From Macrostomum lignano (taxonomy: Eukaryota), in the NCBI GenBank assembly GCA_002269645.1, contig NIVC01002654.1, positions 57,371-103,667 on the forward strand: a stretch of DNA of 46,297 nt. The letters run 5' to 3'. Both the position numbers and the translations under genes were made by a program. Shown here one piece after another: positions 1 to 32,585 of the stretch (its first letter is position 1; every line of letters begins with the position of its first letter). Under the pieces are notes generated by a model, which saw only the letters and a program-made list of their open reading frames with translations, was not told the origin of the DNA and searched no databases.

Positions 1-1539
1 AACATACCAGTTTAATGGTAGCCACCCGGCCCATCGGTGGCGACGAAAATGTTAATCTAAGTGCTTATAATAATAGTCGTTTTGTTTTAATCTTTAACAA
101 CTGTAATATTTATAACCTGAAGTTTGTCTTAATGCTAATCTTGCCGTTGCTCAAAAAAGGCTATTAAATAGAGGCAAAATTAAAAAGCGACAGGCCTAAT
201 CTAAAGTTTTTCAAGTAAATATTAAGAATCATGTTCAAGAATTCGTGTTGACATTTCGAAGAGTGAAATAGAAGGAAAACATATCGTATGTACTACTGGT
301 AAGTAGAATACTGAGGAGGCGATCGAAATGAAACGAAGTAGATCTCGGAGTTACATGATCCCTGAGGTTAAATACCCTAGATTACTGTAAGATATTTAAA
401 AGAAGAAATACATATTAAGAGATTCCAGGCCTGTAAAAGAATTGATCCTGCACTCGGAACATAGTAAGAACGCGACCAGTAAGAAGTAAGAAATTACTCA
501 GACAGACAAAGACTAATGCTCGAAGGAATATCTAAAAGAGACAAAATATTTACTAGAGTATTTTTGCTTAACTATTTGTTTAAAGATTGAAGGTCCAACT
601 GAAGAGACTCACTAGACTAGGAGAAATCCGACTTGACTGCAAGGCTTCCAGCGTACCGCTGAGCAAAATTAAAAACAAAGAAGTATAGTCACGCCGGAGA
701 CAAAAGAGGTCACAAGTTGTCTTTGTCTTAAAGTTGACTTCATAAGCTACGAACTTGATGCTGTCTACACGTAGAAAATATATATAAGAAGGCTAAATCA
801 CAGTGGTTCCTTTTGGTAGACAATTCCTTATCTGTCTTAAATGTATAAATGAGTTCGATAAAATATATTTTGAAAGTAAAATCGGTATAGACTTCAGCTG
901 ATGGCAATAAAATTGTAGAAAGCAATACTAGCAAAAATAGATCTGAGCGGCAAATTTGGTATAAAACACGGCTTCTTAAATTTCAGTTTTGTGAGCTTAA
1001 AAATATTTATAAAGGAACAAAATGACCATCTTTGAGGCAACGTTAGGCACCAGAAGTTAGTAAGATACTATGTCTAACTAAAGTATTAGTTATCTTGGAT
1101 GTTTTTTGAAGCTTAGTACTAAAAAATTATGATTAATATCTCTAGGCATCTGCGCCCTTCATCAGCAGCAGCCAGTGGGCCAAGAACTCAATCGGATCAG
1201 CTGGTCGCGCGTCGGCAACTCTGGCCAAGCCTCTGGACAGGACGGCGCCTAAAAGTTTCATTAAAGTAAAATATAATCAAAAAGATTTCTAATGCTTTTT
1301 AATAAATCATATATTTATATAAACTGTTTATTTGTTTTAAAACATTCTGCAAACAAAACCGATGCTACACCTAGAAATTTGACTGCTAAGTTTTCTGAAG
1401 GTGAATGTTTTTTTGAGTCTGGATCAACAAATTTTCAATAAATTTGCATATCGGACTGCAATCGTCACTTTGTATTTAATAAATAATACTGAACCTACGC
1501 ACAATGATGCATGCCCCCAATACACTATTATAGTGGGTA

Positions 1540-1779
1540 TTACTCACGAACATAGCTAAGGTAGTCGCGTTGTAGGTAATCGTTAATCGGTTTCGGATTT
1601 CTGTTATTTAACAACGCCTGGTGACTATCGGTGTGTTTTGTCTGCAGAATTTCGTACACCTGCACCGGATGGTCTCGAAGCAAGACGACAAGTCTGTTGG
1701 GGCTCGGAGACATGAGCAGCACTGGCTCCTCCTCGAATAGATAGTTGAATAGCAGAGAGCCGTCCAGGAGGGAGAAGGC
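1540..1779 (-). CDS. NWD1: NWD1-like gene, terminal coding exon (exon 8). It encodes ...AFSLLDGSLLFNYLFEEEPVLLMSPSPNRLVVLLRDHPVQVYEIL... and ends at a stop.
   Basis: Minus-strand ORF 1540..1722 extends upstream in frame to acceptor cacag|GCC at about 1779. Phase 0 matches the donor of the upstream exon. An ATTAAA polyA-like signal lies downstream on minus at about 1480. Confidence 0.55.
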   Translation of the reverse strand, partial: AFSLLDGSLLFNYLFEEEPVLLMSPSPNRLVVLLRDHPVQVYEILQTKHTDSHQALLNNRNPKPINDYLQRDYLSYVRE

Positions 1780-1840
1780 CTGTGGATGTTTGAGTTGGTT
1801 GATTAAACATACAGAACACTGACTTTAAGACTAGATATGA

Positions 1841-2240
1841 ATCCTAAAGTAGAGGTAGGACACACTGCAACCCGATAACTGGACTCACTGCAACTCGATG
1901 ACTGGACACACTGCAACCCGATGACTGTGGACACACTGCAACCCAATAACTGAACTCACTGCAACCCAATAACTGAATTCACTGCAACCCGATGACTGTG
2001 GACACACTGCAACCCAATAACTGAACTCACTGCAACCCAATAACTGAATTCACTGCAACCCGATGACTGTGGACACATTGCAACCCAATAACTGAACTCC
2101 TGCAACCCGATGACTGGACACATTGCAACCCGATGACTGGACACATTGCAACCCGATGACTGGACACACTGCAACCCGATGACTGTGGACACACTGCAAC
2201 CCAATGACTGTGGACACACTGCAACCCGATGACTGTTATT
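1841..2240. repeat. Minisatellite, unit about 21-23 bp (CACTGCAACCCGATGACTGGA/ CTGTGGA variants), left part of an array split by a SINE.
   Basis: Direct tandem periodicity visible in the sequence. It lies within the last intron of the NWD1-like gene. Confidence 0.9.
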
Positions 2241-2250
2241 ATTACAGGCA

Positions 2251-2597
2251 GGGGGGTTGTGTGCACCCTGGCGCAATTTAAGCGACATTGTCACACAACC
2301 GGCGAGAGGCATTACTGCCCATTCCGCCGACTCCCCTGAGCAGGCATACAAGCGCGCGGATACGTTACGCAGGCACACACTCACACAGGAGTGTACAGCG
2401 GCCCTAACTTTATCAATTGTTAGGCATGTACACTTCACTGCGCCTTGGGGGGGTTGGCTCTCAAGGCCGTTAATTGCACAAGCGAGCCAAGCCAAGATTC
2501 CAATCCAGCCCCAAATTAATGTGGCTGCACTTGGAATCGAGCCTGGGTTGCGGCACACCAGAGCAGCTGCGCTACCGCTGGGCTACGGCCCCCCCCC
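2251..2597 (-). mobile_element. tRNA-derived SINE, copy 1 (about 350 bp), inserted into the minisatellite.
   Basis: Read on minus, it shows a G9 run, then GGCCGTAGCCCAGCGGTAGCGCAG (A-box-like TRGCNNAGYGG) and GGCTCGATTCC (B-box-like). A body follows that is shared with the copy at 35295-35490 (TTCAAGTGCAG.CACATT.ATTT.GGGCT..ATTG.AATCT.GGCTTGGCTC....GTGCAATTAACG.CCTTGAG.GCCAACCCCC...ACATGCCTAAC). It is flanked by the same satellite unit on both sides, with a possible target-site duplication (TSD) ccgatgactgt. Confidence 0.65.
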
Positions 2598-3000
2598 GAT
2601 GACTGTGGACACACTGCAACCCGATGACTGGACACATTGCAACCTAATAACTGGACACTGGACACACTGCAAACCGATGACTAAACACACTGCAACCCCA
2701 TGACTAAACACACTGCAACCCCATGACTAAACACACTGCAACCCCATGACTAAACACACTGCAGCCCGATCACTAAACACACTGCAACCCCATGACTAAA
2801 CACACTGCAACCCGATGACTGTGGACACACTGCAACCCCATGACTAAACACACTGCAACCCTGACTAAACACACTGCAACCCGATCACTAAACACACTGC
2901 AACCCCATGACTAAACACACTGCAACCCGATGACTGGACACACTGCAACCCGATGACTGGACACACTGCAACCCGATGCCTGGACACATTGTAACCAAAG
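2598..3000. repeat. Minisatellite, same 21-23 bp family, right part.
   Basis: Tandem periodicity. Continues the 1841-2240 array after the SINE. Confidence 0.9.
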
Positions 3001-3051
3001 ACAGGTAGCATTCTAACAAAAAACTGAACAGTCTTGATCCGCCAAACTCAC

Positions 3052-3672
3052 CTGCAGAATTCTCTGACCATCCTGCATCAGGTCCTCCTCTGTCCCATCC
3101 TCCTGATCTCGATTGCTCCACCTTTGCCCCAAGGCGAGCCTTCGTCCAATAAGTACGGAACCGTCCATCGCCAACAGCATGTCCTTCAGCACCACGGCGT
3201 TGGTTGGGTCAAGATCGCGAACTGTTTCTCCAGTCTGGACGCTGACAATCTTCATCCGGTAGGTAACGCAGCGCTCACCATCAGGCAGGAGACACAGAAT
3301 CCCAGAGTCGAAGGTCTTGCTTACGGATACAACTCCCAGGTTAACATCGTAGGTCACGAGCTGACCAGGCCAGCACATGACCTCGCGGTGAAGAGCTCTG
3401 GCGTGGCTTTCAATACCTACGCATCGGTACTGAACGATCACGTGACCCGGATGTCCTGGTCGAGCAAACAACATCTCCGGTTGACAATGATCGTCGTGTT
3501 TCAGTTTCAGAGAAAATTGCAGCACCAGTTGAAGCCCGTTCTGGGCTAGACAGAGCATAGCGGCTGACACCTTGGATGAGTCGCCGCCTGCCGCTTGAGT
3601 CAGCAACTCGGACAGCTTCGGTACGATCTCAGCGGCCAGTGGGGCGCCACTTTCCTGGTCAACTGAGCTTTC
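3052..3672 (-). CDS. NWD1: NWD1-like exon 7 (WD-repeat region).
   Basis: ORF 3013..3678. Acceptor tttgcag|GAAAGC at about 3672 and donor CAG|GTGAGT at about 3052. Both are phase 0. Confidence 0.75.
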
Positions 3673-3859
3673 CTGCAAAGGAAAGTAGAGGGACTGAGTT
3701 ATGTTTAGATAGGAAGTTCAAGATCAAACTGAATCTGGCTTAGTAAGACTCTGGTTTGGACTCAAGACTACGAGTAAAAATCCCGTGTTTGTGAATTACT
3801 CATTCGTGAAAATTGACTCAATGATATTACAATTAGGCTGTATCTGCAACCAAACTCAC

Positions 3860-6580
3860 CAGGTACTCAGCAATCTTCAATCGCAGCAGCTCTCTAGCCT
3901 GGCTGATTGCAAATTTGTTTAGCTCCAGTTCGCCTTGCGACCCGCCGTCCTTGGCAACTGCCAGGTCGAGGCGCGCATCCGCCTGCGCCAGATCGCTGGC
4001 AGCTGCGCGCATCGCTTCAACTGCAGCTCGGCGAGTTGCATAACTTAAAAATGCCTCACCGATCGGAAGTTTCGACGGCAGTTGCGGCGCTTTCAGGCGT
4101 TCAATACGGCGAGTAAGTAGATCAGCGCACAGAATCTGGACAGTTTTCTTCAACAGTAGAAACATTTGACCTTTGTCGCTGGATAGAACTCCGAAATAGT
4201 CGGAAGCTTCATCAAACATAGGCGGTCTGTGCTCATCTTTGGCCAACAGGTACCCCACTGGTAGCGAAGTGAACTGGGGGTGATTTGTGATTATTACCGT
4301 CAACTCTGTGCGGCTTGGATCGATCGAGTTTGAGTCAACATCAAACAGAGTTCCATTGGTCAGTGTCGTGGACTCCGAGTCTACCAGACGCATGCCCAGA
4401 TACCTTGGATCGTGCACTAAAACCAGATTAACGCATTTCAATTCGTCCCAATTCTCATTGTAGTCCTTGAGAAAGGGATCTAGATGCTTAACGAAATCAT
4501 CTGCGGTGTTATCTTCGGGTTTGGATTCTTCAGCTTTCTCAGAACCTTTTAGGTAATTATCTTCGTCCTCCTCCGCGAAGACTCCCATAGCATCAGAAGC
4601 GTTGCTGCTGTCTTTGCCTCTGATATCGATTACAATGCGACTCCTTCCAGTTCCAAAGTCTACTTCCACCGCTTGTCCTTGATTGACTTGCTGGTCGTAG
4701 AATGATGAAATCATTTTACCAGATTGACCAGGGCGATATGCAAATAGACCCTGTTTTATCATTTTAGTGCTGATCTTCGCCTTATCAAAGTCGCCTATGG
4801 AGGCCTGCAGAGCGGACAGTTTCAGTATCTTCAGGTGCACCCACGAGTCATTGGTAACTGATTCATCCGGGAGCAAGTTGATCGCCAAGAAGTCTGTGCC
4901 GCTAGGCTGGCCCAGGCTGTAGAATTCGGAATTTCCAGTTAAAGTGCGCAGAAAACTGCCATCTCTGGCGGACCATAGGTTTAACATGCAGCCAGATCTG
5001 CCTTTTGAGAGCAACAAGTCACCATTAGAACTGATGAATAGAGAGTCCATCAGAGGCGCTATTTCCTTACTGTCGTCCTGGTCTAAATTGTGCGTCTCCT
5101 CTAGCACTGAATGGTAGGACAGCTGTGCGGATGAACCGTCGCAGAGGTTGCAGACAAAGCCCATACCGCTCTGCACCGGTGAGCGAAACATCAGAGCAGC
5201 TGTTCCACCATCTGCGGACAGTACTATGCTAAACTCGTGGTTTGCATCGGTCGCTGGACGGATTAACTTCCAGAAAGCACTTTTGTGTACTTCTTTACTA
5301 TTGATGGTGAAGCAGTGCACACTAAATGCTACGCTGTGTGAAGCATTCTCTGGCCCCTCTGTGCGTGTGATGATGAGAAGCTTTCCGTGCAAGACGAACG
5401 GGCAAAACGACTGGAACTGTGAATTCAGAGCTCGTTCTGTCAGCTCAGGACAGCCCAGCTCGACTTCAGTACAGTACTTATCAAGAATAAGAAGACGTGG
5501 AACGTGGGCTGGAGGTCCAGTGGCATCATGATCTGAAAACAACTCGGAATGTCCTACAAAGAACAAGAACTGATCGCCGTTCAATATCGGGCCCTCCCAG
5601 CGCGATTCGCTAGCCAGTAACCGAACCAAATGTAGCGGTTCAGGTCGCAACAAATAGAAAGGTGTTCTCGAAGCTGACTCTGACGTTTTCTTTCTAAGAA
5701 CGAGGTGTTTGTCTGATGCAGCGTAAACTAGGTTGTCACCAGACTCGGCTGCCGCCAGAGCAATCTCACCGGGCAAAGAGTCCATGACGACTCGCCAAGC
5801 TCCAGTGTGCAAATTCGTTTTGAATATTTTGTAAGTTTTGTTGTCGTTGGGATCCTCTTTAGCAATGGAAAGATAGCAGCCACTCGGCTGGAGAGTCCGC
5901 ATATGACGCAGATGAATATGCAAAAGCACTGGACTTTGGCATTCAATTTTCTTCAGTTCGTTGCCCTCATGATCGAACCACCAAACAGTTCCGTCTAAAC
6001 GGTCGTCGAGTGACACGGCGTATATTTGGCCTGACTCGCAGAGCATACCGAGGGCCAGCTGCACCTGCACAGTGCACTGGGTGAAGCTGCTGCCGCTATC
6101 GAAGCAGCTGTTCAGCGGTAGGATTCGAGCTGTACTGGCGTTGTCGTCCCGACAGCCGTTCAGAAGGCGCTGAATATTGCGCGACTCTTCCGCAAAGTGA
6201 CGCAGGCGGCCGCACAAGTCGACAGCGAGGGCCAGGGAGCTGTGGCCAAGGCTGAGAGACGCCACGCGGATTGCGTTGAACACTCGTTCCGCGTCAACTG
6301 CTGCATTCCAGTCACCTTTTTCGGACTCGTTGAGGTCTAGAAACAAGCGCAAGTCCCTCATCAGCTGGTAGCGAGACGAACTGGTCAGCCTAGCCTCCAG
6401 GTGAACCACATTGAAGGTCACTTCGCGATGGAATTCTTCAATACGACCGCTGCGTACCAGATGATAGGGCAGTTCGCTCAGCTTCCTCAGGTTTAGCCGT
6501 CTGCTTCCATCGGCCTGCATCTGCAGAGTGTGTGGCTGCGCTGCCACTTGTCTGTCCGCTTCAGTCGGTGGCGCAATGCC
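3860..6580 (-). CDS. NWD1: NWD1-like exon 6, a giant 2.7-kb exon encoding the WD40-repeat region (about 907 codons).
   Basis: 904-aa ORF 3833..6547 extended upstream to acceptor ttttcag|GGCATT (about 6580). Donor CTG|GTGAGT at about 3860. Contains repeated WD-like blades. Confidence 0.8.
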
Positions 6581-6675
6581 CTGAAAATTTCAGCAATTTT
6601 TTTGGCTTAAAGTGCTTTCTACGACTAAAGTTCCATGTCCTTTTCATCTATCTCAAGATTGAGAGTAAGTCTTAC

Positions 6676-7507
6676 TTGTCGAGATAATTTGGCAGCCAGA
6701 TTTGTTGGACAATGGAACGGTTTCGCTTTTCCTGCCCAGACGCCCAGGAAGTAATCAGCCAGACGAGAGTGAGTCGCCCGGGCGTGAGCAGAATCCACGA
6801 ACAGGTACTCACGCGCAACCTCCCAGAACTGCCTGTGGTACCAGAAAAAAACTCTGCTGGCATCGGCCTCTCTCTCGACAAGGTAGTCACCGATCTCGTG
6901 TCTCAGTCGCGTCCAGCAAAGTGGCGGCACTCGAATGAACGGCGGCAGGTGATGCGCGAATATCTCGCCCAGCACGTCCTCATCTAGAGACAGGAGGTCT
7001 TCCATTTCAACGTCGCTCAGACCGTTTCTAGACGCTGTGATGTAAGACAGCGAGTGGCGCACTAGCAGGGTGCCAAATTGCTTCTCCAGTCGACCGAAAA
7101 AGTGAATGATGGCGCCTCGAACTGTGTGCTGTAGACTTTCAATTGGCGTGTAGGATCGCCACTGCACAACCTCGTTGAACATCAGAGTCATGAAGATTGG
7201 CAGGCTGCACTCATTGAATGCGCTTTGCACCAGTTTCCATTGCGACGCAGTTAGGCATCGCCCTCGCGTTTCCAACATCTGCTGCACGATGCTGCAACAC
7301 AGCGACGGCTCCAGGCCGCGAACCTCGATGAAAGCGTCCGCATCGTTTTCAAGCAGCCTCTGGCACGTGTCCAGAATTCCGTGCAGCTCTGGTAAGCAGC
7401 TCAAAACCAACTTCATGTTGTTGGGCTGTTCAGCTCGCAGCCAGTTCAGCGAGTGAGCTCCATCTGATGCATCCAGCTGATCCAATGAATCCAAGAGCAC
7501 AAATATC
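6676..7507 (-). CDS. NWD1: NWD1-like exon 5 (NACHT C-terminal part; begins [13 protein letters not shown], Walker-B-like).
   Basis: ORF 6625..7596. Acceptor cttcag|G at about 7507 takes the 2 nt left over from the upstream exon. Donor CAA|GTAAGA at about 6676. Confidence 0.8.
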
Positions 7508-7578
7508 CTGAAGTTCGAAGGGGTAAGAAAAAGGTGTAATTGGAAAAATAAATCGAATGCTGCCATAGCCAAACTAAC

Positions 7579-8705
7579 CTCCGTCCTTGTTGGCACAATG
7601 TCTCAGCCATGCGGTAGAAGTTCTCTACAAGATCGCGGAAGTCCTCCAGCGTCTGTAGCAGCTCGGTCTCAGATTGAGACATAAATACCGCCATTTGCAG
7701 ACAAATAGATTTCAGAGTCTGTCGAATGCTGGATGACGCTGGACTTGTTCCCAGAAATCTCATAAAAATCAGAGCCTCGGATCGCTGCGACTGGGGAAGC
7801 CAGTCTCTGATCAAGACTCCGGCTCTCGCTAGCACGGATGTCTTGCCGCTGCCTGAGCAGCCGTAGATCACAACAGGGCGAGTTGACGGCCCCATCAGTT
7901 GGCGTTTCACAGCTTCCATGCAGCTCTGCCGACCTTGAAACTGTTTCACATAGCTCACACACTGGTGCGAGTGCTGCAGCACCTCTGTGTACAGACTGTC
8001 CGACTCCAGGCCAGACAGCTGATTCATGCCTCGATCGATCAACCGGCGCAGCTGAACCTCGAAATCGACCGCCAGCCGACCTTCGTAGTCCGCGTCGCCT
8101 TTGGTGACGGAGCTCCAAGTTACTCGATGCGTGACAATGTTGTCGGCCGGCAGCACGGCAGGCAGCTGCTGTTCCTTCAGTCTCTGAAGTTTCTCGAATG
8201 TTGCCTCATCTAAAGTGCCATCAGACAAAGTCTGTACAAATCTCGACACTGTTGAATCACCCGCCGCCACCTGCTGCTTCACATCTTCGATCTCTCGGCA
8301 AAACAACAGTGCATCTTGCCTACGACTATCTCTGCACTGAAAGACACCGTGAACAAACTCCAGGTGAGTGACAGATGCCGAGTAGCGCAGCGCCTGGTCT
8401 GGGCTCATCTCGCCCAACTCGACCGCCTCCTCCGCAGCAGCCGAGACCGCATCGATCAGCAGTCTCTCCTCGCTCCACCAGCCAGCTCGGGCCTCCTCCG
8501 CCTTGACCTCATCTCCATTGGCTAGCGACTCCGGACTCTGGAAGACAAACACCGGGTCGTCCGTCAGGTTCTCGTCCAGGCGGTACCACTTGTGCAGCAG
8601 AGCAAGCGTCGTATCGCTGCCGCTACTTTTGATTCTTCGCACTATAATCTCCATCTCAGATTGCTGGACCTTGTGTGGCAGCTGTCTTGAGCCGTAGCGG
8701 TGGCT
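7579..8705 (-). CDS. NWD1: NWD1-like exon 4: end of the N-terminal DUF4062-like region plus the NACHT P-loop ([19 protein letters not shown] at about 7815-7870).
   Basis: ORF 7446..8654 extended upstream to acceptor tttgatcag|GGGATT (about 8705). Donor AG|GTTAGT at about 7579. Walker A motif GxxxxGKT/S. Motifs ...[19 protein letters not shown]... recall NWD1. Confidence 0.8.
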
Positions 8706-8787
8706 TAGAATCCCCTGATCAAAAATAAATTAATAGTTTTGGCGATTTGCTTGATAAAAGTAAAGCTTATTGGCAATAGTGACTAAC

Positions 8788-8904
8788 CAAGAAGTGAGGG
8801 CCGATGGAAAGTCGCTGACAGTTCAGCAGCTCTGCTAAGCAAATTTCAGTAGCGGTCCGGTCAATGGTGGCTCCGTCTTGGATGCCCCATCGCATGTCGA
8901 CAAT
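8788..8904 (-). CDS. NWD1: NWD1-like exon 3 ([39 protein letters not shown]).
   Basis: Acceptor cttgcag|ATTGTC and donor TTG|gttagt. 117 nt, phase 0-0. The VD(L/M)RWGI and SIGP motifs are typical of the DUF4062 N-terminus of NWD1/NWD2/TEP1. Confidence 0.7.
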
Positions 8905-9005
8905 CTGCAAGAAGATTATAAAATATAAATGCGCTGTTTGTTACTGGCTTATTTCAAGCATTATTGTCCATTAAGTGTCGATATGTAAATATGCGAGCTA
9001 TTTAC

Positions 9006-9094
9006 GTTGAATGCAACTCCGTGCTGCTCGCGACAATAGCGCCTGAGCTTGGGATACACCTGGTTCATGATCACGTTTCTCTCCGTGTGCATGT
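9006..9094 (-). CDS. NWD1: NWD1-like exon 2 (D-MHTERNVIMNQVYPKLRRYCREQHGVAFN).
   Basis: Acceptor ttgcag|AC and donor AAC|gtaaat. 89 nt, phase 1-0. Continues the VFLSSTFSD... DUF4062 motif. Confidence 0.7.
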
Positions 9095-9306
9095 CTGCAA
9101 TCGTGAGGTTTTTATAGTTTTTTTATCATTGCTCAAATGTAAAAAGTTATATTATGATACTAACGAAAACAAGGACACTCAGGCGCAACGCCTTCGGCGA
9201 CACCGCCCCACAACCAGCTTACACGGTGTGAATCGCTTGACAACCCCCTAGGCCAATTTTGCTCCGCCTATTTAAGCAGAGGTTGTTTCAGTCCTCCAGA
9301 ACTCAC

Positions 9307-9466
9307 CAGAGAAAGTGGAGCTCAGAAAGACTCGAACTGTTCTGGAATTTTTCTCCGGCAAATCTGACGCAGAGGACAAAAGATCGCCAGACATCAACCG
9401 ACGAAAGACGTTCTGAGACTCGGACTCCAGCAGCAGCGCGGGAATCGCCTGGGTGAATCGCTTCAC
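9307..9466 (-). CDS. NWD1: NWD1-like exon 1 with the start codon (ATG at 9466, or internal ATG at about 9394). Encodes ...RTVRVFLSSTFS-G.
   Basis: ORF 9272..9466. Donor TCTG|GTGAGT at about 9307. VF(I/L)SSTF is the DUF4062 start. Confidence 0.65.
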
Positions 9467-11514
9467 AAGAGCGGGCCTCCGACGGCGTTGCTGTCCTTCG
9501 GTGACGGCGGGTGCCTTCGCAGCGTCGGAGCCCCTTTGTAGAAGACGTGCCCTGTCGAGTTACGATTTAGATAAGGGTGGGGGTTCAATCTGCGATACCG
9601 TAGCTTACAGGGCTTTTCGATCAGTGCCTGTAAAGATTCAAGACCACGCTATGGATACGCTATACACACAATAGATGACTACGTATGCCGTATTTCTGCC
9701 CTGACAATCTGACATTTCTTACTATCAGGAATTCTGCACATTGCTGGGTTTTGGCTCTAGCGATGTATAATCAAATCAAACTACAGCAACCAGGCCAAAA
9801 TCCTGTGAGGTTAACAACAAACTAACTGGCATGAAATCTAACTTGAAAACTTTCCTGGGAAATCTGTGTGATGATTATTTAGTTAATTTAAGTTATTTTC
9901 TAATCCAGTTTGGACGCTAATCTCACCCAGACATCAACTTCGTCCATTTTGAAACTTTTGATTTAGCCGCCGCTGCAGGTGCCACTCGCTGGCTAAGCCG
10001 CTTCAATAATGATGGCCGTCGAGCCATTGGGCCTCCGCTGCTTCCTCCAGTAGTGTGGCCGACCGCGGGAACAGTTGCATCGCCACTTTCCTTTGTCTCT
10101 TCTTCCTGAAGTTTGCATAAGAAAACACCCTTCATTTTAAAGTTTGAACTATATTACTTTATAATATTTAAGAAGCCTTTTAAATTTTCTTTAAATTGAG
10201 GAAAAGTTAAATATATAATATATTTTACTTTTATATTAAAGTAAAAATATTTTACTTGGGAAAATTGTAAGTATATAGACTTCAGATCATAAATATTTGA
10301 TTTGGAAGCCTTTACTTAGCAAACTAGTAATTTAGTCTTTGATTGGTATGCTTTAATGTTTACCTTTTCTGAATGATTTATTGTGAAACTTTTTACTCAA
10401 AAATATACTAATAAAGTTAAAAATCACAACATACAAATAGGAATAGCAGCTTACAAAATTAATTTAATATTAATATTACTATCTTTTTAAATATTTTATT
10501 TAAATATGCTTCTAGAATACAGAAAAGTTATAAAGATACATTATACAAATGATGCATGTTACATGAAAAGGAAATTGTTTGCAGCAAATTTTTATGTCTC
10601 ATATTGCATACAGCATACTGTACAATGAAACTAGGTCTAATATGCCTAATTCAAAAGGCTGTGAAAGTCTGGGAAAGATTGAAAGTTACTTTTACAAGCA
10701 CAAATTTCCAAAACAGCCCAAAAGTTCTGATAAAAATCTGTTAAATTTGAAAAGCTGGAAATTTAATTGCAGGCTTATCAAATTTTAAAATTTAATTTTC
10801 TGGAACCTACGGTTTCTACCCAGGTTAATTTATTAAGTTGAAAAATATGTTTGAAAAATTGCACAGGTGTTTTTTAGGAGTATGAAACGAAAAGTTAACA
10901 TTAATAATTGCCATCTTCCTTATTATTGTATCAGTTTAATTTTGTACCATTACATAGTTAATTTAACTATTAGAAGACTGATATCAAAGGCTTAGTCTCT
11001 TTCAGTCTTTATCAAAGAATGATAGAAATACTTAGGGCTAAGCTTCATCAAACCATAATAACTGCGTAACTCGCAATTAACCTACCAATTATATTGACTT
11101 TTGTGCCCACGTGCATGAGTTTAAGTTTTAAAGCGTATTGGAAACGTAGTCTCCAAGTTTTATATAAATAAAACATAAACAGAAGTTAAGGACATTAAAT
11201 AAAACTTTAGATAAAATTGATTTATTGTGTTATGTTTACTTCAAAATTAACAATTTTTTTCTAATTTGTTTAGCTACGTACAATTATGCGGTATAGCAAC
11301 ATTTTCAAGCAAAGTAAAGTATTATTAAGTAAATAATGCATATAATTGTTCAGTTATATTTACAAATTATATTTTCAAGATTTTTATTTTGTTCCCACTT
11401 TGACTAATATATAAGAAGCAAATAGATGGTTTCTAATTATTTGAATTCGCTTGCACATTACCCTGGAGACTTCCCTTGCCCATGCTATCGATCCAGACAG
11501 CATCAATTTAATGT

Positions 11515-11598
11515 TATAAAATAAACCGATGATTGATTTTGGCTGGCGATAAAGAAAACGAAGTTAGGGCGGTCGCAGCCCAGAATTCATTTTTTTCT
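11515..11598 (-). repeat. 3' LTR, about 84 bp (TGTTTAAGTTAGAAA...GGTTTATTTTATA on minus).
   Basis: About 90% identical to 14221-14320. Confidence 0.6.
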
Positions 11599-12044
11599 AA
11601 CTTAAACACAGGTCAATGGTTGGGCGTTGGCGGAGAAATATTATTTGAGTACATTGTGCGTACAGTGAAAATAGAGAAAATAACTTATGGATGAAACAGG
11701 CGGCTAGCTTAGGCCAACTCATTTTTTCGACACTCCTCCTTTTTCCTACGAATTCGAAAGTCGTGGGAAAGGACAAAAATAATGGTCTGAGGATTGAACC
11801 TCTAAAAAAATCAACGACTGGACTGGCCATCTCACCCGTTCCCAGCGCCGGGAATTCCCAGCACCCGCAACGCGAAGAAGAACCGAACGGATAGCACCAT
11901 CACGGCCAGGACGCACTTCCTCGACAATACCCAATTTCCACTTGAGTCTTGTTGTCGAGCTTCACCTGCCAGAAGAACCACTTCACCAACATTTGGTGAA
12001 CGGTGGTTTAGGTTGATCCTTTAGGGCTTTCTCGAGCAGAAACT

Positions 12045-12758
12045 CTAAGTAGGACGTCTTCCATTGGTTCCAAAACCACCCAGAGCTGCTTTAAGCATTC
12101 TAAGCCGTTTCGGAAGCGGTAGAACGGAGTCCGCCTCACCGTCGATATCTTCCGGTTCTTGGCTGAGACGACTAGCTGCAATTAAATGGGACGGTGTGAT
12201 GACCTCCATACCATCGCCTGAATCCGAAGGTACATGCAACAGCGGCCGACAGTTAACCACAGCTTCGATTTCCACACTTAGAGTATAATCAACTGGTCGT
12301 AGCTGATGCCAATTGTAGCATCCCAGAGGTTTTCCAGTAACCTCCCCACCACGGGGCTCGCTCGGGCACAAAATGCCAACAATTAATCTTCTTCGACGAA
12401 CAGAACGACTGCAGCTCTTCTGAGATATTAGCGCCGAATCACTGACGACGGAGGGAATGCCTCTTCGAGCCACGAACCGACGCAGTGCATGCAGAAGCTG
12501 TTCGCTGTCCATACTCGAAACAACTTCCAGGTGAACGGCTCGAGTTGCTGAGCAAGTGAAGAGCAGGATGTACGCCTTTTTGCTCTCACCACCCTCCCCC
12601 GTCCGATAGAATTTCGGACCATCATAATCCAGTCCTACGGTACGAAAAGCACGAACAGTTGACAGACGGAAGGATGGAAGCTGCAGAACCGCACGCACGG
12701 AAACCGGTCGCCCTTGAAACTTCTTGCACACAACACACCCCGTCAGTAACTGCTTCAC
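12045..12758 (-). pseudogene. BEL/Pao integrase catalytic core. It is fused directly downstream of the gag Zn knuckle, so the element is deleted.
   Basis: ORF 12045..12758. It has an HHCC-like CVVCKKFQGRP followed by D..D..E core motifs typical of Pao integrases. Confidence 0.7.
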
Positions 12759-13060
12759 ACGCTGTCTCGCCTTTAAAATCCAAAAACGTTCACCTTAGGT
12801 GGATATTTTTGACGAGACGCGCCTTGAGCACATATGCTTACGTGATGCTTGCCGGAGCAATCACGGCACTTCTGCGGATCGCGACTCTTCTCTTTTGCTA
12901 GAAATTGTCTACGCCTTTCAACGGTCGGAAACTCCATGCAATTTTCCGAATAATGCGATGCTTTGCAATAGGTTCGTAGCGTCTGGTGCTTTCGGTTGCA
13001 CTGCTACCAGTGTTGATTGATTGATTGCTACCATTGACATTGATGCGTTTGAAGCTTGCT

Positions 13061-13618
13061 TTAAATCTGAATGAGATGCTTGTGAAGTTGACTTGTGGCT
13101 GAGCTGCGATCCAGCGGACTCCCGCACAAAAATTTCATTCTTGTAGTAATGTCGTCGTGAAACTGCTGAAGACACTTTAGAGATGAGTCCTGGAGACGAA
13201 GTTCAGATATCGCCCCCGTGAATGTCGGAATTTGCCTCTTGGGAAGCTTGATCTGCGACCCGGACTCTACGGAACGACTTTTGGCCGCTGACTCCTCCGG
13301 CGATTGTTGACTATTGAAAGTTGCTTCCAGCATCTTGATGCAGCTGGTACACTTCATCGAATAAGCTTGATTCTCTTCCACTTCAGCATCCAGCCCCTCT
13401 TCAGCGACAGACTCCTCTATGGCTTCATCCAATGCTTGCACTGCCGTCAATTTCGACTTCAGAATCTGCACAATTTCCTCCGCATCCGCACGATTTGCAG
13501 CTCGACCAATATCCACGGAGAGAAGATGGTCAGCCTTTCCAACAGCCTTCGTGATCGCCGCGTGGATACCTGTACGCTTCCTGACTGCTGAAGATACCTC
13601 GTCTTCACTGAGAACCAT
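13061..13618 (-). pseudogene. BEL/Pao gag N-terminal region (DUF1759-like).
   Basis: ORF 13061..13618. The LPK..IP.F.G....W motif class is present. Confidence 0.55.
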
Positions 13619-14207
13619 GACGACTTGAATTGGGAGATGCTGCTAAAGCCAAGAAGAACTCCTGACTGAGAACTTGAAGACAGCCAGCCCAAAAAAAAGA
13701 AGCAGACTGCAGGAAAACACTTCGAGTGAACACGAAGACAAGCGAATGCAAAAAATTCAACAACAAAAAACAAGTAAATTTGGTAAGACAAACTCTAAAA
13801 GTCCAGAATTTGAAGAATTTAACGATCAGCTATTAACTATACGTATAACTGTCAATAATGTTAACGAGATGCGCAAAAAAGACGTAATTCAAAAGGAGAA
13901 ACAGTTACGATACTCATCAACGCAAGGACGGTCGACTGTTCGACATCGATCAGAGAGAGCCTGGCTGAAGGTTGCAGCTCGTGGAACCCGAGGGACCGGA
14001 ATACCGTTGACGGGACCACCGCTGCAGCGATCCGGAGGCCGCGAGCTGCTGCTTACTCTGACGACTGCGCTTCGCCGAAAGCCAACATAGTAGCCCCGTG
14101 CAGAGCGCAACAGTTGGAGAAATATCGCTGCGCTAGAGATTCAGTGCAGTTGCACTAACTTGAGCTTCTGAAGGCCGCAATAGTTTTAACTAGTATGTTG
14201 TACTTTT

Positions 14208-14220
14208 TGTTCGGGCGCCA
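14208..14220 (-). other. Primer-binding site TGGCGCCCGAACA, complementary to the 3' end of a tRNA-Lys-type tRNA. It abuts the 5' LTR.
   Basis: On minus: ...TTTTATA|TGGCGCCCGAACAAAAAG. This is identical to the first 13 nt of the classical tRNA-Lys3 PBS. Confidence 0.65.
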
Positions 14221-14320
14221 TATAAAATAAACCGATAATTGATTTTGGCTGGCGACAAAGAAAACGAAGTTTGGGCGGTCGCAGCCCAGAATTCAGCTTT
14301 TATATTTTCTAACTTAAACA
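14221..14320 (-). repeat. 5' LTR, about 100 bp.
   Basis: Direct repeat of 11515-11598. Begins TGTTTAAG on minus. Confidence 0.6.
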
Positions 14321-14693
14321 TATTTTTTCGACGAATCCAGGGTGACGTTGCAAGTGCTGTCGGTTGTTAGAGAAAAGTAAAGGTGCATCCACTTCAATGG
14401 GCTAAGCAAAAGTCAAGGCCAATTTCGAAACCACTTTAAAATCAATGCTAATCACCTAAAAGCAGGAGTTTACGAGTATATATACTCTTTGAAAACCTCA
14501 GGGGAAGGAACAAGCTTTTTGAAATCCAATAAGAGAAACAAGAGCAGCTGTAAATTAATATTTCGTGTCCACAAACCAATGTCCTTTGCTTGTTGTAAGT
14601 GCAAGCCTGAGGCACTAAAATCTCAAGTGTTATTTACGAACGCATGGAAACAAAAACTAGAAAAGGTGGCACGCAATCGCACAGCACACCAAC

Positions 14694-15287
14694 TATACTG
14701 TCCGTCAAAAGTTCCGGAACCCTTGCTACGATGTCTTCTAGCGGACATAATTTCAGTCCGTTTCAATTGTAACTTGATTCAAATGAAAGCTGCGGATCTC
14801 AGCTCCATGATGTGGTCAAGAAAAAGTTTATTCGAAGGAGCGCGTGTGAACAGGCCAGTGTTATGTACATAAAGGTTAGAGAAAAAAGTGAGGAAAAGAC
14901 AAACAAGCAATTGTCTATGGTTGCTGAGTCTATGGAGCAAACACACATGGGAAGGAATCGGTTTGCGCGCAGTGTTCAGCCTGGCTAACATTAGTCTATG
15001 GCCAAAACTTGTGTTGAAATCAACAGGCTCTTATGGATTCTTGTGCAGTCAGCTTTCATGGGAGAGTCAATTGCTTGTTTGTCTTTTCCTCACTTTTTTC
15101 TCTAACCTTTATGTACATAACACTGGCCTGTTCACACGCGCTCCTTCGAATAAACTTTTTCTTGACCACATCATGGAGCTGAGATCCGCAGCTTTCATTT
15201 GAATCAAGTTACAATTGAAACGGACTGAAATTATGTCCGCTAGAAGACATCGTAGCAAGGGTTCCGGAACTTTTGACGGACAGTATA
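14694..15287. repeat. Perfect inverted repeat: arms 14694-14914 and 15067-15287 (221 bp, apparently 100% identical) with a 152-bp spacer.
   Basis: ORF-track proteins on opposite strands are identical: 14489..14872(+) = 15109..15291(-), and 14779..14991(-) = 14888..15202(+). Arm ends are TATACTGTCCGTCAAAAG / its reverse complement. Confidence 0.9.
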
Positions 15288-16406
15288 CCAAGCCAGTTTA
15301 TATACACCGTCTATGACGTCCGTGATGCCGGCATTTGGTTTGTACCTCATGCTGACGGCAAGGACCACTAGGAACACTTCGTTATACATAAATCTAGTAG
15401 TCCTTGGGTGACGGTCTCTACGCCTCCGTAATTTTACGGCTCCCCGCGTAACAAAGCTGATGCAAAGCTAGCTTAAAAAATAATTAATTTCGCGAAAAAA
15501 ACTTCTAGACGCATGTGGCGTGACTTTGCTGCGTTTTTCCTGTATAGAAAAGGCCCTCCGACAGCGAAGGACCGCGAGCTTTCCAAAAAAAATATGTCTG
15601 AAGAATAGCAGTCGGTTTCATGCAGAACCTTTGTTATAATATGGACTGTATATGAGTAGTACGACCCTTCCTCCACCCTCTCATCTTGTATAATCGCACC
15701 AAATTATTGCCAGGGACTTCTAGAGCTAAATAGAAATGCTGTTTTTAGGAGTCCCTGCCCAGACGACGAACCTACTGATTCGCCTGCATGACCTCTATAT
15801 TTATGTTACTTGTTAGTTCTCATGTTGCTAGCTAAACAATCACATCAAATAAATTGGTTAGCAAAGCAATTGTTTACAAATCAATGAAAATTAATTGTGC
15901 CACAAAATTTGACACAGCTGTGGAGTAAAACAATTCTTGCGTATACCTGTAGACCAAAAGACATTACATGTACGTGTAGTTGACTTAAAAATCACGAAAT
16001 GACGCAACGCAAAAACTTGTTTATATCCGATTAAGCATGAAATTAGCTAAATGAAAGTCAGACAGCAATAGCTGGAAGCGCACATTTACAAATTAAATTC
16101 TTACGCATAATACCAAAAAATTAACAAAATGAATAACATACACGTACACTACGGCTCGCAGTGAGTCGAATTGATTTGAAGTTTCATTTAAACTTGCACA
16201 AAAACTTTTGCAGGCAGCTGTTGGTGCTTCATACTATGTACTATTACACTGCAGGCGCCTCGATCTGAATGCATAATTTATGAGCAGGTTTTAGAAATGA
16301 CTATATTTTATGACTTATTATGACTGGCAGGGAGTAGAATGAGAAATCGATTTACAGGAAATACGTTTTCCGAAAATTATTTCGTCTTGGAAGCTACTTT
16401 GAGCTT

Positions 16407-19404
<2,998 letters not shown>

Positions 19405-21873: not shown

Positions 21874-21904
21874 TTAAGACTGGTACCGGACGCCTGCAGT
21901 TTCA

Positions 21905-22759
<855 letters not shown>

Positions 22760-23635: not shown

Positions 23636-24125
<490 letters not shown>

Positions 24126-24249
24126 CTAAAAGATAGAAAAATGAAATTTTTATGCGACAAATTTTAGTATAGAGCGAGTGCAAAATAACGGCGAACCCAG
24201 CCCGTCTCATACAGCCTCCAACTTGAATATTATCTTTAAAAGAACCAAA

Positions 24250-24740
24250 ATGTAGTCAGTCGATTAGTGTCATCAAACAGTGTCAGTCAAACAGTGTCAG
24301 TCAAACAGTGTCAGTCAAACAGTGTCAGTCAAACAGTGTCAGTCAAACAGTGTCAGTCAAACAGTGTCAGTCAAACAGTGTCAGTCAAACAGTGTCAGTC
24401 AATAAGTGTCAGTCAAACAGTGTCAGTCAAACAGTGTCAGTCAAACAGTGTCAGTCAAACAGTGTCAGTCAATAAGTGTCAGTCAAACAGTGTCAGTCAA
24501 TAAGTGTCAGTCAAACAGTGTCAGTCAAACAGTGTCAGTCAAACAGTGTCAGTCAAACAGTGTCAGTCAATAAGTGTCAGTCAAACAGTGTCAGTCAAAC
24601 AGTGTCAGTCAAACAGTGTCAGTCAAACAGTGTCAGTCAAACAGTGTCAGTCAAACAGTGTCAGTCAATAAGTGTCAGTCAAACAGTGTCAGTCAATTAG
24701 TGTCAGTCAAACAGTGTCAGTCAATAAGTGAATTAGTCAA
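24250..24740. repeat. Minisatellite, 14-bp unit (CAGTGTCAGTCAAA/ATAA variants).
   Basis: Tandem periodicity. The same family recurs at 26270-27370. Confidence 0.95.
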
Positions 24741-24787
24741 TCAGTCAATTAGCGCACAGCGCATTGCACAAGTGTCAGACTCCTTAC

Positions 24788-24889
24788 GAATTGGCGCAGC
24801 GAAGGTTGCCGAAGGAGCTGAAGGCGGCGCCTCATCAAACAGCAACGCGTCGAGATCGGCATCTTCATCTTCCTCAGGTTCCTCTTCGA
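24788..24889 (-). CDS. Mini-exon B1 (EEEPEEDEDADLDALLFDEAPPSAPSATFAAPI-R), phase 1-1.
   Basis: Acceptor ttttgcag|TC and donor C|GTAAGGAGT. Three homologous copies. Confidence 0.45.
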
Positions 24890-25259
24890 CTGCAAAAACA
24901 AGTAGCATGAATTGGCAATGCTGCAATCGCATCGATAAAATCATAACCACATTTTATACTTTTATATCAATAGAAAAATTGATTTTAGAATGAAGTTTTT
25001 TCCATTAGCATTATTTTACATTTTTCATCGCAATCCAATAATTCAGCATCTTCGCAGAACATGTCCAGCTCTAAGAGTTAAGGTGCAGCAGCGGCTTTAT
25101 GATTTATTGCAACCCGAATAACGATCATACTTGCAGATTAAAAACAAATACAAAAAGCATTGGCTGACCAGCATTATTCGCCAAAATATTGCCCCCGAGA
25201 TAATGGATAAATAATCAGCGGTCCCAGTGCGTGACAACGATTGTCTGGCGAGCGCCGGT

Positions 25260-25580
25260 AGGCTGGCCTCGCCATCTTAAACATCCTAAACATCTTAAAC
25301 ATCCTAAACATCTTAAACATCTTAAACATCCTAAACATCTTAAACATCCTAAACATCCTAAACATCCTAAACATCTTAAACATCTTAAAAATCCTAAACA
25401 TCTTAAACATCCTAAACACCCTAAACATCTTAAACATCTTAAAAATCCTAAACATCTTAAACATCCTAAACATCCTAAACATCTTAAACATCTTAAAAAT
25501 CCTAAACATCTTAAACATCCTAAACACCCTAAACATCTTAAACATCCTAAACATCTTAAACATCCTAAACAGTCTGGCCT
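25260..25580. repeat. Minisatellite, 9-bp unit (TAAACATCY).
   Basis: Tandem periodicity. Confidence 0.9.
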
Positions 25581-25967
25581 CGCCTAGACTGTTTAAACGA
25601 TGGACAATTCATTGTCACGTGCTGCGACCGCTGATTCTTTGCATTGTTTTTCTGTTTGACGATCCTACAGACAATGCATTGTTTGTAGTAATGGATTGTT
25701 CTGCATTAAAAATGTGAATAATGATCGTCAAATTGCTAAACAATGAGAGAGGGAGGTAGACATATTGAAGGAGAGAGAGGTAGACCGAGGGAGAAAGGTA
25801 GACATGATGAGGGAGAGGTAGTGAGGGAGAGGTAGACATGAGGGCGACAGCGAGTAGGATTCAGAGAAGGGCAGCCCCTCAAGTAACTGCATATTTCCAT
25901 CAGTTGACCAGTTATTCAAATAAAATGTTTGAAAACTCATCGAAAAACAGCTACTAATAGAGGCTTA

Positions 25968-26114
25968 CCTTGCTGTTGCGGAGGCCTACTGGAGGCCATG
26001 AAGGACAGGTATTCAGGAGATTGGGCTCTTCTCAGCGCAACGTCGGAACTTCGGCTGTCGAATTTCACCTTCGAGTCGGAAATCGCCGCGTCAATGTTGC
26101 GCTCAGGGAAGGCA
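25968..26114 (-). CDS. Mini-exon A3 (GAFPERNIDAAISDSKVKFDSRSSDVALRRAQSPEYLSFMASSRPPQQQ), phase 1-1.
   Basis: Acceptor ccttcag|GT and donor CAAG|GTAAGC. Confidence 0.45.
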
Positions 26115-26269
26115 CCTGAAGGCGGAAGGTTAAAACTGGTAATCAAATTGGCTGCATCAGCTGCCGATTTTTCAACTCACAAGAGAGACGAAAGATATAG
26201 ATGGGGAGAAAGAAGAGGGAGATAGGGAGAGATAAGAGGGAGATGGGGAGAGATGAGAGGGAGATGGGG

Positions 26270-27370
26270 AGAGATGTCAGTGTCAGTCAAACAGTGTCAG
26301 TGAAACAGTGTCAGTCAAACAGTGTCAGTCAAACAGTGTCAGTCAATTAGTGTCAGTCAATTAGTGTCAGTCAAACAGTGTCAGTCAATTAGTGTCAGTC
26401 AAACAGTGTCAGTCAAACAGTGTCAGTCAAAAAGTGTCAGTCAAACAGTGTCAGTCAAACAGTGTCAGTCAATTAGTGTCAGTCAAACAGTGTCAGTCAA
26501 ACAGTGTCAGTCAAACAGTGTCAGTCAAACAGTGTCAGTCAAACAGTGTCAGTCAAACAGTGTCAGTCAAACAGTGTCAGTCAAACAGTGTCAGTCAATT
26601 AGTGTCAGTCAAACAGTGTCAGTCAAACAGTGTCAGTCAAACAGTGTCAGTCAAACAGTGTCAGTCAAAAAGTGTCAGTCAAACAGTGTCAGTCAAACAG
26701 TGTCAGTCAATTAGTGTCAGTCAAACAGTGTCAGTCAATTAGTGTCAGTCAAACAGTGTCAGTCAAACAGTGTCAGTCAAATAGAGTCAGTCAATTAGTG
26801 TCAGTCAAATAGTGTCAGTCAAACAGTGTCAGTCAAACAGTGTCAGTCAAACAGTGTCAGTCAAACAGTGTCAGTCAAAAAGTGTCAGTCAAACAGTGTC
26901 AGTCAAACAGTGTCAGTCAAACAGTGTCAGTCAATTAGTGTCAGTCAAACAGTGTCAGTCAAACAGTGTCAGTCAAACAGTGTCAGTCAAAAAGTGTCAG
27001 TCAAATAGTGTCAGTCAAACAGTGTCAGTCAAACAGTGTCAGTCAATTAGTGTCAGTCAAATAGTGTCAGTCAAACAGTGTCAGTCAATTAGTGTCAGTC
27101 AAATAGTGTCAGTCAATTAGTGTCAGTCAAATAGTGTCAGTTAATTAGTGTCAGTCAAATAGTGTCAGTTAATTAGTGTCAGTCAAACAGTGTCAGTCAA
27201 ACAGTGTCAGTCAATTAGTGTCAGTTAATTAGTGTCAGTCAAACAGTGTCAGTCAAACAGTGTCAGTCAATTAGTGTCAGTCAATTAGTGTCAGTCAATT
27301 AGTGTCAGTCAATTAGTGTCAGTCAAACAGTGTCAGTCAATTTGTGTCAGTCAATTTGTGTCAGTCAAAC
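26270..27370. repeat. Minisatellite, 14-bp unit (CAGTGTCAGTCAAA), about 75 copies.
   Basis: Tandem periodicity. Confidence 0.95.
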
Positions 27371-27390
27371 ACTGTTCGTCAGACTCCTTA

Positions 27391-27490
27391 CGAATTGGCG
27401 CAGCGAAGGCAGCCGAATGAGCTGAAGGCGGCGCCTCATCAAACAGCGAAGTGCCAAAATCTTCATCATCTTCCTCAGATTCATCTGCGC
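27391..27490 (-). CDS. Mini-exon B2 (ADESEEDDEDFGTSLFDEAPPSAHSAAFAAPI-R), phase 1-1.
   Basis: Acceptor ttttgcag|GC and donor C|GTAAGGAGT. Confidence 0.45.
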
Positions 27491-27732
27491 CTGCAAAAAC
27501 AGGTACTCGTAGAAGGAATCGGCATTGCTGCAATCCTATTAAATAAAATCAAAAATGTATTCTATAAATTTCTAACCAATAGCAATTTCACATTTGTCAT
27601 CGCGATCCAGTAATGTAGCATCTTCGCAGCACATGTCCAGCTCTAAGAGTGCAGTTTAAGCAGAGGGTTTATGATTTATTGCAATTTAAATAATTCATAA
27701 TTGCAGATTAAAAAATACTAAAGTAGCATTGG

Positions 27733-27828
27733 CTGACCAGCATCCAGATCGAAATCATCGGAAGATTCAGAGGAGTCCTCGCTACCATCGCTGGGCCGTG
27801 CCACCGCAGCCCGGGGCGCATCTGCTGC
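27733..27828 (-). CDS. Mini-exon C-II (AADAPRAAVARPSDGSEDSSESSDDFDLDA), phase 1-1.
   Basis: Acceptor tcatatttccag|CT. The weak donor G|GTCAGCC is conserved in all three macro-repeat copies. Confidence 0.3.
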
Positions 27829-27899
27829 AGCTGGAAATATGACAAAAATATATAAATGCTTAAAGAAATGACCAATATAGTGACCACACACTTGCGACC

Positions 27900-29030
27900 A
27901 GAGAATGACCAGAATAGCGACTATGACCAATCTGATGATCAGATTAGAGACTATGACCAATCTGATGACCAGATTAGCGACTATGACCAATCTGATGACC
28001 AGATTAGCGACTATGACCAATCTGATGACCAGATTAGCGACTATGACCAATCTGATGACCAGATTAGCGACTATGACCAATCTGATGACCAGATTAGCGA
28101 CTATGACCAATCTGATGACCAGATTAGCGACTATGACCAATCTGATGACCAGATTAGCGACTATGACCAATCTGATGACCAGATTAGAGACTATGACCAA
28201 TCTGATGATCAGATTAGCGACTATGACCAATCTGATGACCAGATTAGCGACTATGACCAATCTGATGACCAGATTAGCGACTATGACCAATCTGATGACC
28301 AGATTAGCGACTATGACCAATCTGATGATCAGATTAGAGACTATGACCAATCTGATGACCAGATTAGCGACTATGACCAATCTGATGACCAGATTAGCGA
28401 CTATGACCAATCTGATGACCAGATTAGCGACTATGACCAATCTGATGATCAGATTAGAGACTATGACCAATCTGATGACCAGATTAGCGACTATGACCAA
28501 TCTGATGACCAGATTAGCGACTATGACCAATCTGATGACCAGATTAGAGACTATGACCAATCTGATGACCAGATTAGCGACTATGACCAATCTGATGACC
28601 AGATTAGCGACTATGACCAATCTGATGATCAGATTAGCGACTATGACCAATCTGATGACCAGATTAGCGACTATGACCAATCTGATGACCAGATTAGCGA
28701 CTATGACCAATTTGATGACCAGATTAGCGACTATGACCAATCTGATGACCAGATTAGCGACTATGACCAATCTGATGACCAGATTAGCGACTATGACCAA
28801 TCTGATGACCAGATTAGAGACTATGACCAATCTGATGACCAGCTTAGCGACTATGACCAATCTGATGACCAGATTAGCGACTATGACCAATCTAATGACC
28901 AGATTAGCGACTATGACCAATCTGATGACCAGATTAGAGACTATGACCAATCTGATGACCAGCTTAGCGACTATGACCAATCTGATGACCAGATTAGCGA
29001 CTATGACCAATCTAATGACCAGATTAGCGA
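27900..29030. repeat. Minisatellite, 30-bp unit (GACCAATCTGATGACCAGATTAGCGACTAT), about 38 copies.
   Basis: Tandem periodicity. The unit is a multiple of 3, so all frames stay open. Confidence 0.95.
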
Positions 29031-29460
29031 CAGAGACAGTGTCTGCTGTCTCCAATCCTGTTGTGTCTGCTGTCTCCAATCCTGTTGTGTCTGCTGTCTC
29101 CAATCTGTTGTCTGCTATCTCCAATCTGTTGTCTGCTGTCTCCAATCTGTTGTCTGCTGTCTCTAATCCTGTTGTGTCTGCTGTCTCCAATCCTGTTGTG
29201 TCTCTGTCTCCAATCCTGTTGTGTCTGCTGTCTCTAATCCTGTTGTGTCTGCTGTCTCCAATCCTGTTGTGTCTGCTGTCTCTAATCCTGTTGTGTCTGC
29301 TGTCTCCAATCCTGTTGTGTCTGCTGTCTCCAATCTGTTGTCTGCTGTCTCCAATCCTGTTGTGTCTGCTGTGTCCAATCCTGTTGTGTCTGCTGTGTCC
29401 AATCCCGTTGTGTCTGCTGTCTCCAATCCCGTTGTGTCTGCTGTCTCCAATCCTGTTGTG
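29030..29460. repeat. Minisatellite, 24-bp unit (TGTCTGCTGTCTCCAATCCTGTTG), about 18 copies.
   Basis: Tandem periodicity. Its reverse complement is the unit at 31620-32530. Confidence 0.95.
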
Positions 29461-29586
29461 TCTGCTGTATTGGCTTACGACAGCAAAAGAAATTTCTATT
29501 TTAAATTTTCACAGCATTAATCCCGATTTTCAGCTTGTAAAAAGGTACGTTAATAAAAAATTTGCGCATTGCATCAGACTTCTTAC

Positions 29587-29676
29587 GAGCTGGTGCCTGG
29601 TAGGCTGGTGACAGCGGCTCCTCAAACAGCGACCTGCCGTATTCATCAAAGTCATCTTCCTCAAATTCAGCTTTGC
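29587..29676 (-). CDS. Mini-exon B3 (KAEFEEDDFDEYGRSLFEEPLSPAYQAPA-R), phase 1-1.
   Basis: Acceptor tttttttgcag|GC and donor C|GTAAGAAGT. Confidence 0.45.
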
Positions 29677-30062: not shown

Positions 30063-30099
30063 ACTACCGCTGAAAAGTAAGTGATCAAAATGTTGAAAG

Positions 30100-31570: not shown

Positions 31571-31619
31571 CTGCAGATCATATTGTAAGCTCTTACCGGT
31601 TATATTTGACATTTGACTC

Positions 31620-32530: not shown

Positions 32531-32585
32531 CAATAGGAACAGGTAGCAGATTTAAGCTCAAAGGTTTCCTTCAAATTTTTCTCAC

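Follow-up and report, generated by a model that had tools for sequence, protein, structure and literature searches.

A perfect 220-bp inverted repeat in an intergenic gap of Macrostomum lignano, possibly a young palindromic MITE-like element

Introduction

The described systems closest to the locus reported here are palindromic MITEs, Foldback elements, hairpin-RNA loci, and Tc1 elements with long TIRs. Palindromic or long-TIR MITEs include Stowaway-like elements derived from Tc1/mariner and the PALTA-type palindromic elements of C. elegans (Repbase). TA is the target duplication of Tc1/mariner elements, and many Tc1 elements start with CAGT. The Drosophila Foldback element (FB) has arms composed of tandem subrepeats and makes 9-bp target duplications. 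In Drosophila hpRNA loci, the arms derive from their targets. The IR-DR subgroup of Tc1 elements, which includes S, Minos, Paris, Bari, and Sleeping Beauty, carries TIRs of approximately 200–250 bp (PMC4120734).

[quoted passage not shown] The stretch analyzed here, referred to as the window, comprises 46,297 nt of M. lignano nuclear DNA (contig NIVC01002654.1, positions 57,371–103,667), with a strongly heterogeneous composition and dozens of minisatellites. The original prediction placed a long perfect inverted repeat in an intergenic gap of this window and offered three candidates for it, unranked: a hairpin-RNA locus, a foldback or MITE-like element, and an assembly artifact. A literature search on inverted repeats, hairpins, MITEs, and palindromes of M. 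lignano yielded no description of the element.

Structure of the inverted repeat

The inverted repeat is genuine, and chance cannot account for it. It measures 594 bp overall and consists of a left arm of 220 nt (14694–14913, 41% GC), a spacer or loop of 154 nt of unique sequence (14914–15067, 46% GC), and a right arm of 220 nt (15068–15287) that is the reverse complement of the left one. A base-by-base check found 0 mismatches in the 220 paired nucleotides and sharp arm boundaries, with complementarity at random level directly inside and outside the arms. Tolerating a single mismatch (14914/15067), beyond which two more pairs match, lengthens the arms to 223 nt and shortens the spacer to 148 nt; a repeat search lists this longer version as 100% identical. 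A blastn alignment of one arm to the other gives 99.55% over 223 nt. The arm identity that had been claimed from the open reading frames therefore holds at the nucleotide level, and the outer coordinates were exact; the sizes first given, 221 bp for the arms and 152 bp for the loop, were off by one and two bases, respectively. The translations were indeed the same on opposite strands, as the peptide YCPSKVPEPLLRCLLADIISVRF...RPVLCT is found in both ORF 14489–14872(+) and ORF 15109–15291(-).

The predicted RNA fold of the 594 nt has an energy of -459.5 kcal/mol, compared with -154 ± 6 for dinucleotide shuffles (z = -49.6). The left arm alone folds no better than its shuffles (z = +0.46), and the spacer has no significant structure on either strand relative to shuffles. 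Within the 46-kb window, this is the sole non-satellite inverted repeat with a short spacer. Neither the arm nor the spacer has a further copy, full or partial, in the window. A terminal 24-mer and a mid-arm 27-mer had no exact match in metagenome and prokaryote contigs, which are collections without flatworm genomes.

Content of the arms and spacer

In base composition, the arm and the spacer resemble the flanks (39–45% GC) as opposed to the exons (50–55%). The longer open frames of the left flank, arm, and spacer were joined into a 307-aa query, which matched 0 proteins at E <= 10 among 5.8 billion, M. lignano entries of NCBI and UniRef included; this search covers protein-coding targets, in frames uninterrupted by stop codons. 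For the longer open frames, this agrees with the earlier statement that the arms have no coding homology. Rfam returned 0 matches at the gathering threshold for the whole window and 0 at E <= 1 for 14300–15700.

Several candidate identities gained no support from these or related searches. A hammerhead ribozyme, as in the inverted copies of Penelope-type elements, or a miRNA has no support, since the Rfam search was empty. A pair of tRNA-derived SINEs is likewise unsupported, with 0 tRNA genes in the whole window. Vector contamination was rejected after a blastn search against plasmids without a match.

The internal organization of the arms is simple. No pair of 14-mers with at least 12 matches was detected as a direct repeat within the arm, and the similarity of the outer 45 nt to the remainder of the arm is at chance level (p = 0.29). 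Tandem Repeats Finder and a repeat search revealed no tandem or direct subrepeats in 14694–15287 except two short pairs at chance level. The arm contains three short palindromes. Within its outer 70 nt, each arm contains the pentamer GTCCG 3 times, against an expectation of approximately 0.08; this post hoc observation is weak, and the pentamer could be a candidate subterminal binding motif.

Each arm also carries one AATAAA, at 14827–14832 on the minus strand and at 15149–15154 on the plus strand. A transcript entering from either side would meet this signal approximately 85 nt into the second arm, and if it were used, the hairpin transcript would be cut to a stem of approximately 100 bp.

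Ends and candidate target site

Both ends of the inverted repeat read TATA (14694–14697 on the left and 15284–15287 on the right), and these tetranucleotides are matching candidates for a target-site duplication of TA or TATA. At the left junction, flanking DNA ending in CACACCAAC is followed by TATACTGTCCG, and at the right junction, CGGACAGTATA is followed by CCAAGCC. A systematic scan for target-site duplications identified only TA (offset 2 or 4) and TATA as perfect direct duplications. The pentamers directly outside, CCAAC and CCAAG, agree at 4 of 5 positions. If there is such a duplication, the true end of the element would be TACTGTCC or CTGTCC, and an empty site reconstructed on this assumption, CCAAC-TA(TATA)-CCAAG, would be a TA-repeat target. 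Because TA and TATA are palindromic, such a duplication is indistinguishable from the repeat itself and would be counted within any inverted repeat; the ends are compatible with a target duplication without proving one.

Position and age

An internally deleted LTR retroelement flanks the inverted repeat on the left, and a transporter gene flanks it on the right. The retroelement (11515–14320, minus strand) is separate from it. The LTRs at 11515–11608 and 14221–14320 are 100-nt repeats with 91% identity, differing by 3 substitutions and 2 indels. The 5' LTR starts with TGTTTAAG on the minus strand, and a tRNA-Lys-type primer-binding site, TGGCGCCCGAACAA, is located directly inside it (reverse complement of 14207–14220). 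Only a gag-like ORF (13061–13618) and an integrase-core remnant (12045–12758) remain of the interior, and neither a clear target-site duplication nor a polypurine tract was seen for this element.

On the other side is a two-exon gene for an MFS transporter of the monocarboxylate-transporter-like type, located by tblastn (minus strand, exons 18802–19404 and 16410–17264). ORF 16407–17297(-) is 99% identical to the M. lignano protein BOX15_Mlig029081g1. The inverted repeat is 1.1–1.7 kb downstream of the MFS stop codon, and the intervening DNA contains neither AATAAA nor ATTAAA on the minus strand. The single intron of this gene consists almost wholly of a 20-bp minisatellite (17342–18772, 71 copies), which contains long spurious ORFs on both strands. 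The repeat is truly intergenic, as had been proposed, with 373 nt separating it from the 5' LTR and 1.1 kb from the stop codon.

With 0 differences in 220 positions, the 95% upper bound on the divergence between the arms is approximately 1.4%. If the arms were as old as the neighboring LTR pair, complete identity over 220 nt would have a probability of approximately 0.001. Homeologous gene copies in this genome differ by 1–3% at the protein level. Set against the divergence of the LTRs and of the homeologues, the identity of the arms indicates that the inverted repeat is distinctly younger than its surroundings or that its arms have been homogenized.

Comparison with known elements

The locus resembles palindromic MITEs in several features. 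It is shorter than 600 bp, non-coding, and intergenic, it consists almost entirely of inverted arms, and it has TA at both ends. It differs from them in its perfect 220-nt arms, which would be unusual in any but a very young copy, and in its terminal bases, which match no described family.

The likeness to IR-DR Tc1 elements lies in the TIR length (216–220 nt here) and in the TA at the ends, which is palindromic here. In contrast to these elements, the arms lack direct-repeat transposase-binding sites, there is no transposase ORF, and the ends are not of the CAGT type. The locus was kept out of the IR-DR group because internal direct repeats, which define that group as two or three transposase-binding sites in each TIR of roughly 250 bp, were tested for and are absent. 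Long inverted arms, a short center, and the capacity to fold back are shared with Drosophila FB. The arms here are of unique sequence, unlike those of FB, and with tandem-subrepeat arms and a 9-bp duplication both absent, the locus was not assigned to this group either.

Drosophila hpRNA loci and plant inverted-repeat siRNA loci likewise combine long inverted arms of near-perfect complementarity with a short loop, a structure that would form a Dicer substrate. In hpRNA loci, the arms normally show homology to a target gene, and none was found for the arms here (at the protein level, in the longer open frames). Other structures were rejected. For an inverted SINE pair, two SINEs would have to have inserted independently with identical ends, lacking both tails and target duplications. 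A core of 154 nt is too small for DIRS, Maverick, or viral terminal repeats, which were excluded for this reason.

A possible young palindromic MITE-like element

The most likely explanations are a young transposon-like palindrome and a fresh inverted duplication, both of which are known kinds of structure in repeat-rich genomes. Our tentative preference, at a probability of roughly 45%, is for a young, recently inserted, non-autonomous DNA transposon of palindromic (foldback-type, MITE-like) structure and TA-target type. Of the three candidates first listed, the foldback or MITE-like element fits best, given the 594-bp size, the non-coding content, the long perfect TIRs, and the TA/TATA ends. 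The inverted arms reach the outer ends, the total length is below approximately 800 bp, and the open frames have no homologue, all of which are usual for MITEs.

An element of this kind would be 586–590 bp long. Two TIRs of 216–218 bp would enclose a remnant core of 154 bp, and the duplicated TA on either side would lie within a TATATA-like target. A DDE transposase encoded elsewhere in M. lignano, most plausibly of the Tc1/mariner type, would bind both identical ends, excise the element, and paste it into a TA dinucleotide, so that mobility would be of the cut-and-paste type in trans. A Tc1/mariner family has been described in M. lignano with 35 copies, of which 6 are intact, with TIRs of 19–203 bp and TA duplications (PMC10379824 and its supplement). 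A possible source of the transposase thus exists in this species, and cut-and-paste transposition in trans is proposed for this reason. The identity of the arms would persist through the young age of the insertion or through intramolecular gene conversion between the arms. As a side effect, a read-through transcript could form a perfect double-stranded RNA of 220 bp, a putative Dicer substrate.

Several findings count against a MITE-like element. It is present in a single copy within the 46-kb window, and its TA/TATA ends, being palindromic, do not prove a target duplication. The possible ends, TACTGTCC or CTGTCC, lack the CAGT start, and the internal direct repeats of IR-DR elements are absent. 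In the frames searched, no predicted protein of M. lignano overlaps a copy, which weakly disfavors a very high copy number in the genome.

If the MITE-like reading is correct, the locus would mark very recent activity of a DNA-transposon family in M. lignano. Such a finding would be conceptually routine, and it would be useful for repeat annotation and for transposon-based transgenesis in this species.

Alternative explanations

The best-surviving alternative is a one-off inverted duplication, which we regard as doubtful yet worth serious attention. One arm and the spacer would then be the original intergenic DNA, and a template switch or fold-back repair synthesis would have copied approximately 220 nt in inverted orientation 154 nt away. 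The product would be single-copy, recent, and probably neutral. Many of the results above suit such an event: the sharp boundaries between arms and spacer without a decayed extension, the perfect identity, an arm GC content (41%) in agreement with that of the flanks, the lack of IR-DR and foldback hallmarks, and the lack of an unambiguous, non-palindromic target duplication. One copy only was present among the sequences scanned (the 46-kb window, proteins, and metagenome and prokaryote contigs without flatworm genomes). The ends present a difficulty, because a duplication would fall exactly on TA or TATA with a chance of approximately 1/16 to 1/256. An event of unusual length would also be required, as known template-switch events mostly span tens of bp, and structures of this type in repeat-rich invertebrate genomes are usually derived from transposons. 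If the locus is indeed single-copy, it would be a clean case of a new long inverted duplication, which is raw material for hairpin-RNA genes.

A hairpin-RNA (endo-siRNA) gene is unlikely. In this case, the locus would be transcribed either alone or within a long 3' UTR of the MFS gene, the 220-bp duplex would be diced to siRNAs of approximately 21 nt that silence a target, and selection or gene conversion would keep the arms identical. Such a reading concerns function and could overlie an origin by transposition or duplication. The extreme predicted fold is in its favor, and read-through from the MFS gene is conceivable because no canonical poly(A) signal precedes the repeat on the minus strand. 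Several observations point the other way. In the frames searched, the arms match no protein-coding gene that could be a target, Rfam has no match, and the composition of the arms looks intergenic. The AATAAA in each arm is placed so as to truncate a transcript in either direction, and youth is a simpler account of the perfect identity than selection. Both the transcription and the small-RNA output are putative. For flatworm small-RNA biology, only a functional hpRNA locus would carry wider interest; the locus would otherwise be ordinary. To our knowledge, no hpRNA-type endo-siRNA locus has been described in Platyhelminthes, and this one, if true, would be the first. The pathway genes exist in the species, which has Dicer-2, RdRPs, and an expanded set of Argonautes (PMC5594548), and this also counts for such a gene. 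Amplification of the siRNAs by the retained RdRPs would be possible.

An artifact of assembly or polishing, the third of the initial candidates, is weakened by the unique 154-nt spacer without an adapter and by the internal position, and we consider it improbable. A chimeric palindromic long read, or a mis-join in the Canu consensus or during Pilon polishing, would have made an inverted copy that is absent from the animal. The question is fair, since the M. lignano assembly was produced by Canu 1.4 from PacBio RSII data, which are noisy, and then polished with Pilon (PMC5730564). The assembly is known as redundant and the genome as hard to assemble, and perfect identity is what an artifactual copy would be expected to have. 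Against this, the best match to the SMRTbell adapter is 10 nt long and lies inside an arm, the arms are only 220 nt long, and the structure is approximately 14 kb and 31 kb from the ends of the window, between well-formed features. Palindromes from missed adapters have the 45-nt SMRTbell adapter or nothing at their center, arms of read length, and often a position at a contig end. A consensus at approximately 130x coverage should also drop a single chimeric read. A small remainder of probability, similar to that of a hairpin-RNA gene, is left for explanations beyond those listed.

Other features of the window

The left part of the window is occupied by a gene encoding an NWD1-like STAND/NACHT protein with a CABIT domain (1145–10117, minus strand), which has 23-bp minisatellites in its introns (1858–2235 and 2609–2996). 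Three copies of this gene, Mlig012608g1, g2, and g3, are 96–100% identical and are located on separate contigs in Mlig_3_7. Copy g1 lies on a contig of 149 kb (149,219 bp), g2 shares a contig of 702 kb (701,524 bp) with Mlig029081g1, and the remaining contig measures 153 kb. The gene in the window is closest to g3, with 99.8–100% identity in most exons. The presence of three copies fits the hidden polyploidy and the assembly redundancy of M. lignano. A sharply AT-rich block (10120–11500, approximately 28% GC) separates the retroelement from the first exons of the NACHT gene, and a second one (27–31% GC) is found at 44000–46000.

A dispersed repeat of approximately 195 nt occurs at 2405–2596 and 35296–35488. 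The two copies are inverted, 80% identical, and 32.7 kb apart, and they represent an interspersed repeat family. Two minus-strand ORFs have recognizable homology, namely a partial Hsp70 at 21902–22651 (E = 4e-13) and a PARP catalytic domain at 37676–38335 (E = 2e-11). Both are isolated in a setting of microsatellites (AGAC, GA-rich, and CT-rich) whose strand skews are extreme, and they may represent pseudogene fragments or exons belonging to split genes.

A satellite block at 24000–33000 contains 14-bp arrays (24255–24724 and 26278–27375) and 30-bp arrays (27905–29031 and 30119–31149), and a 109-nt unit recurs in it at 25013, 27585, and 29795. Two 24-bp arrays in the same block (29039–29468 and 31634–32538) are inverted relative to each other, 92–96% complementary, and approximately 2.2 kb apart, and they flank a 30-bp array. 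The layout of this block recalls foldback-type elements with tandem-repeat arms.
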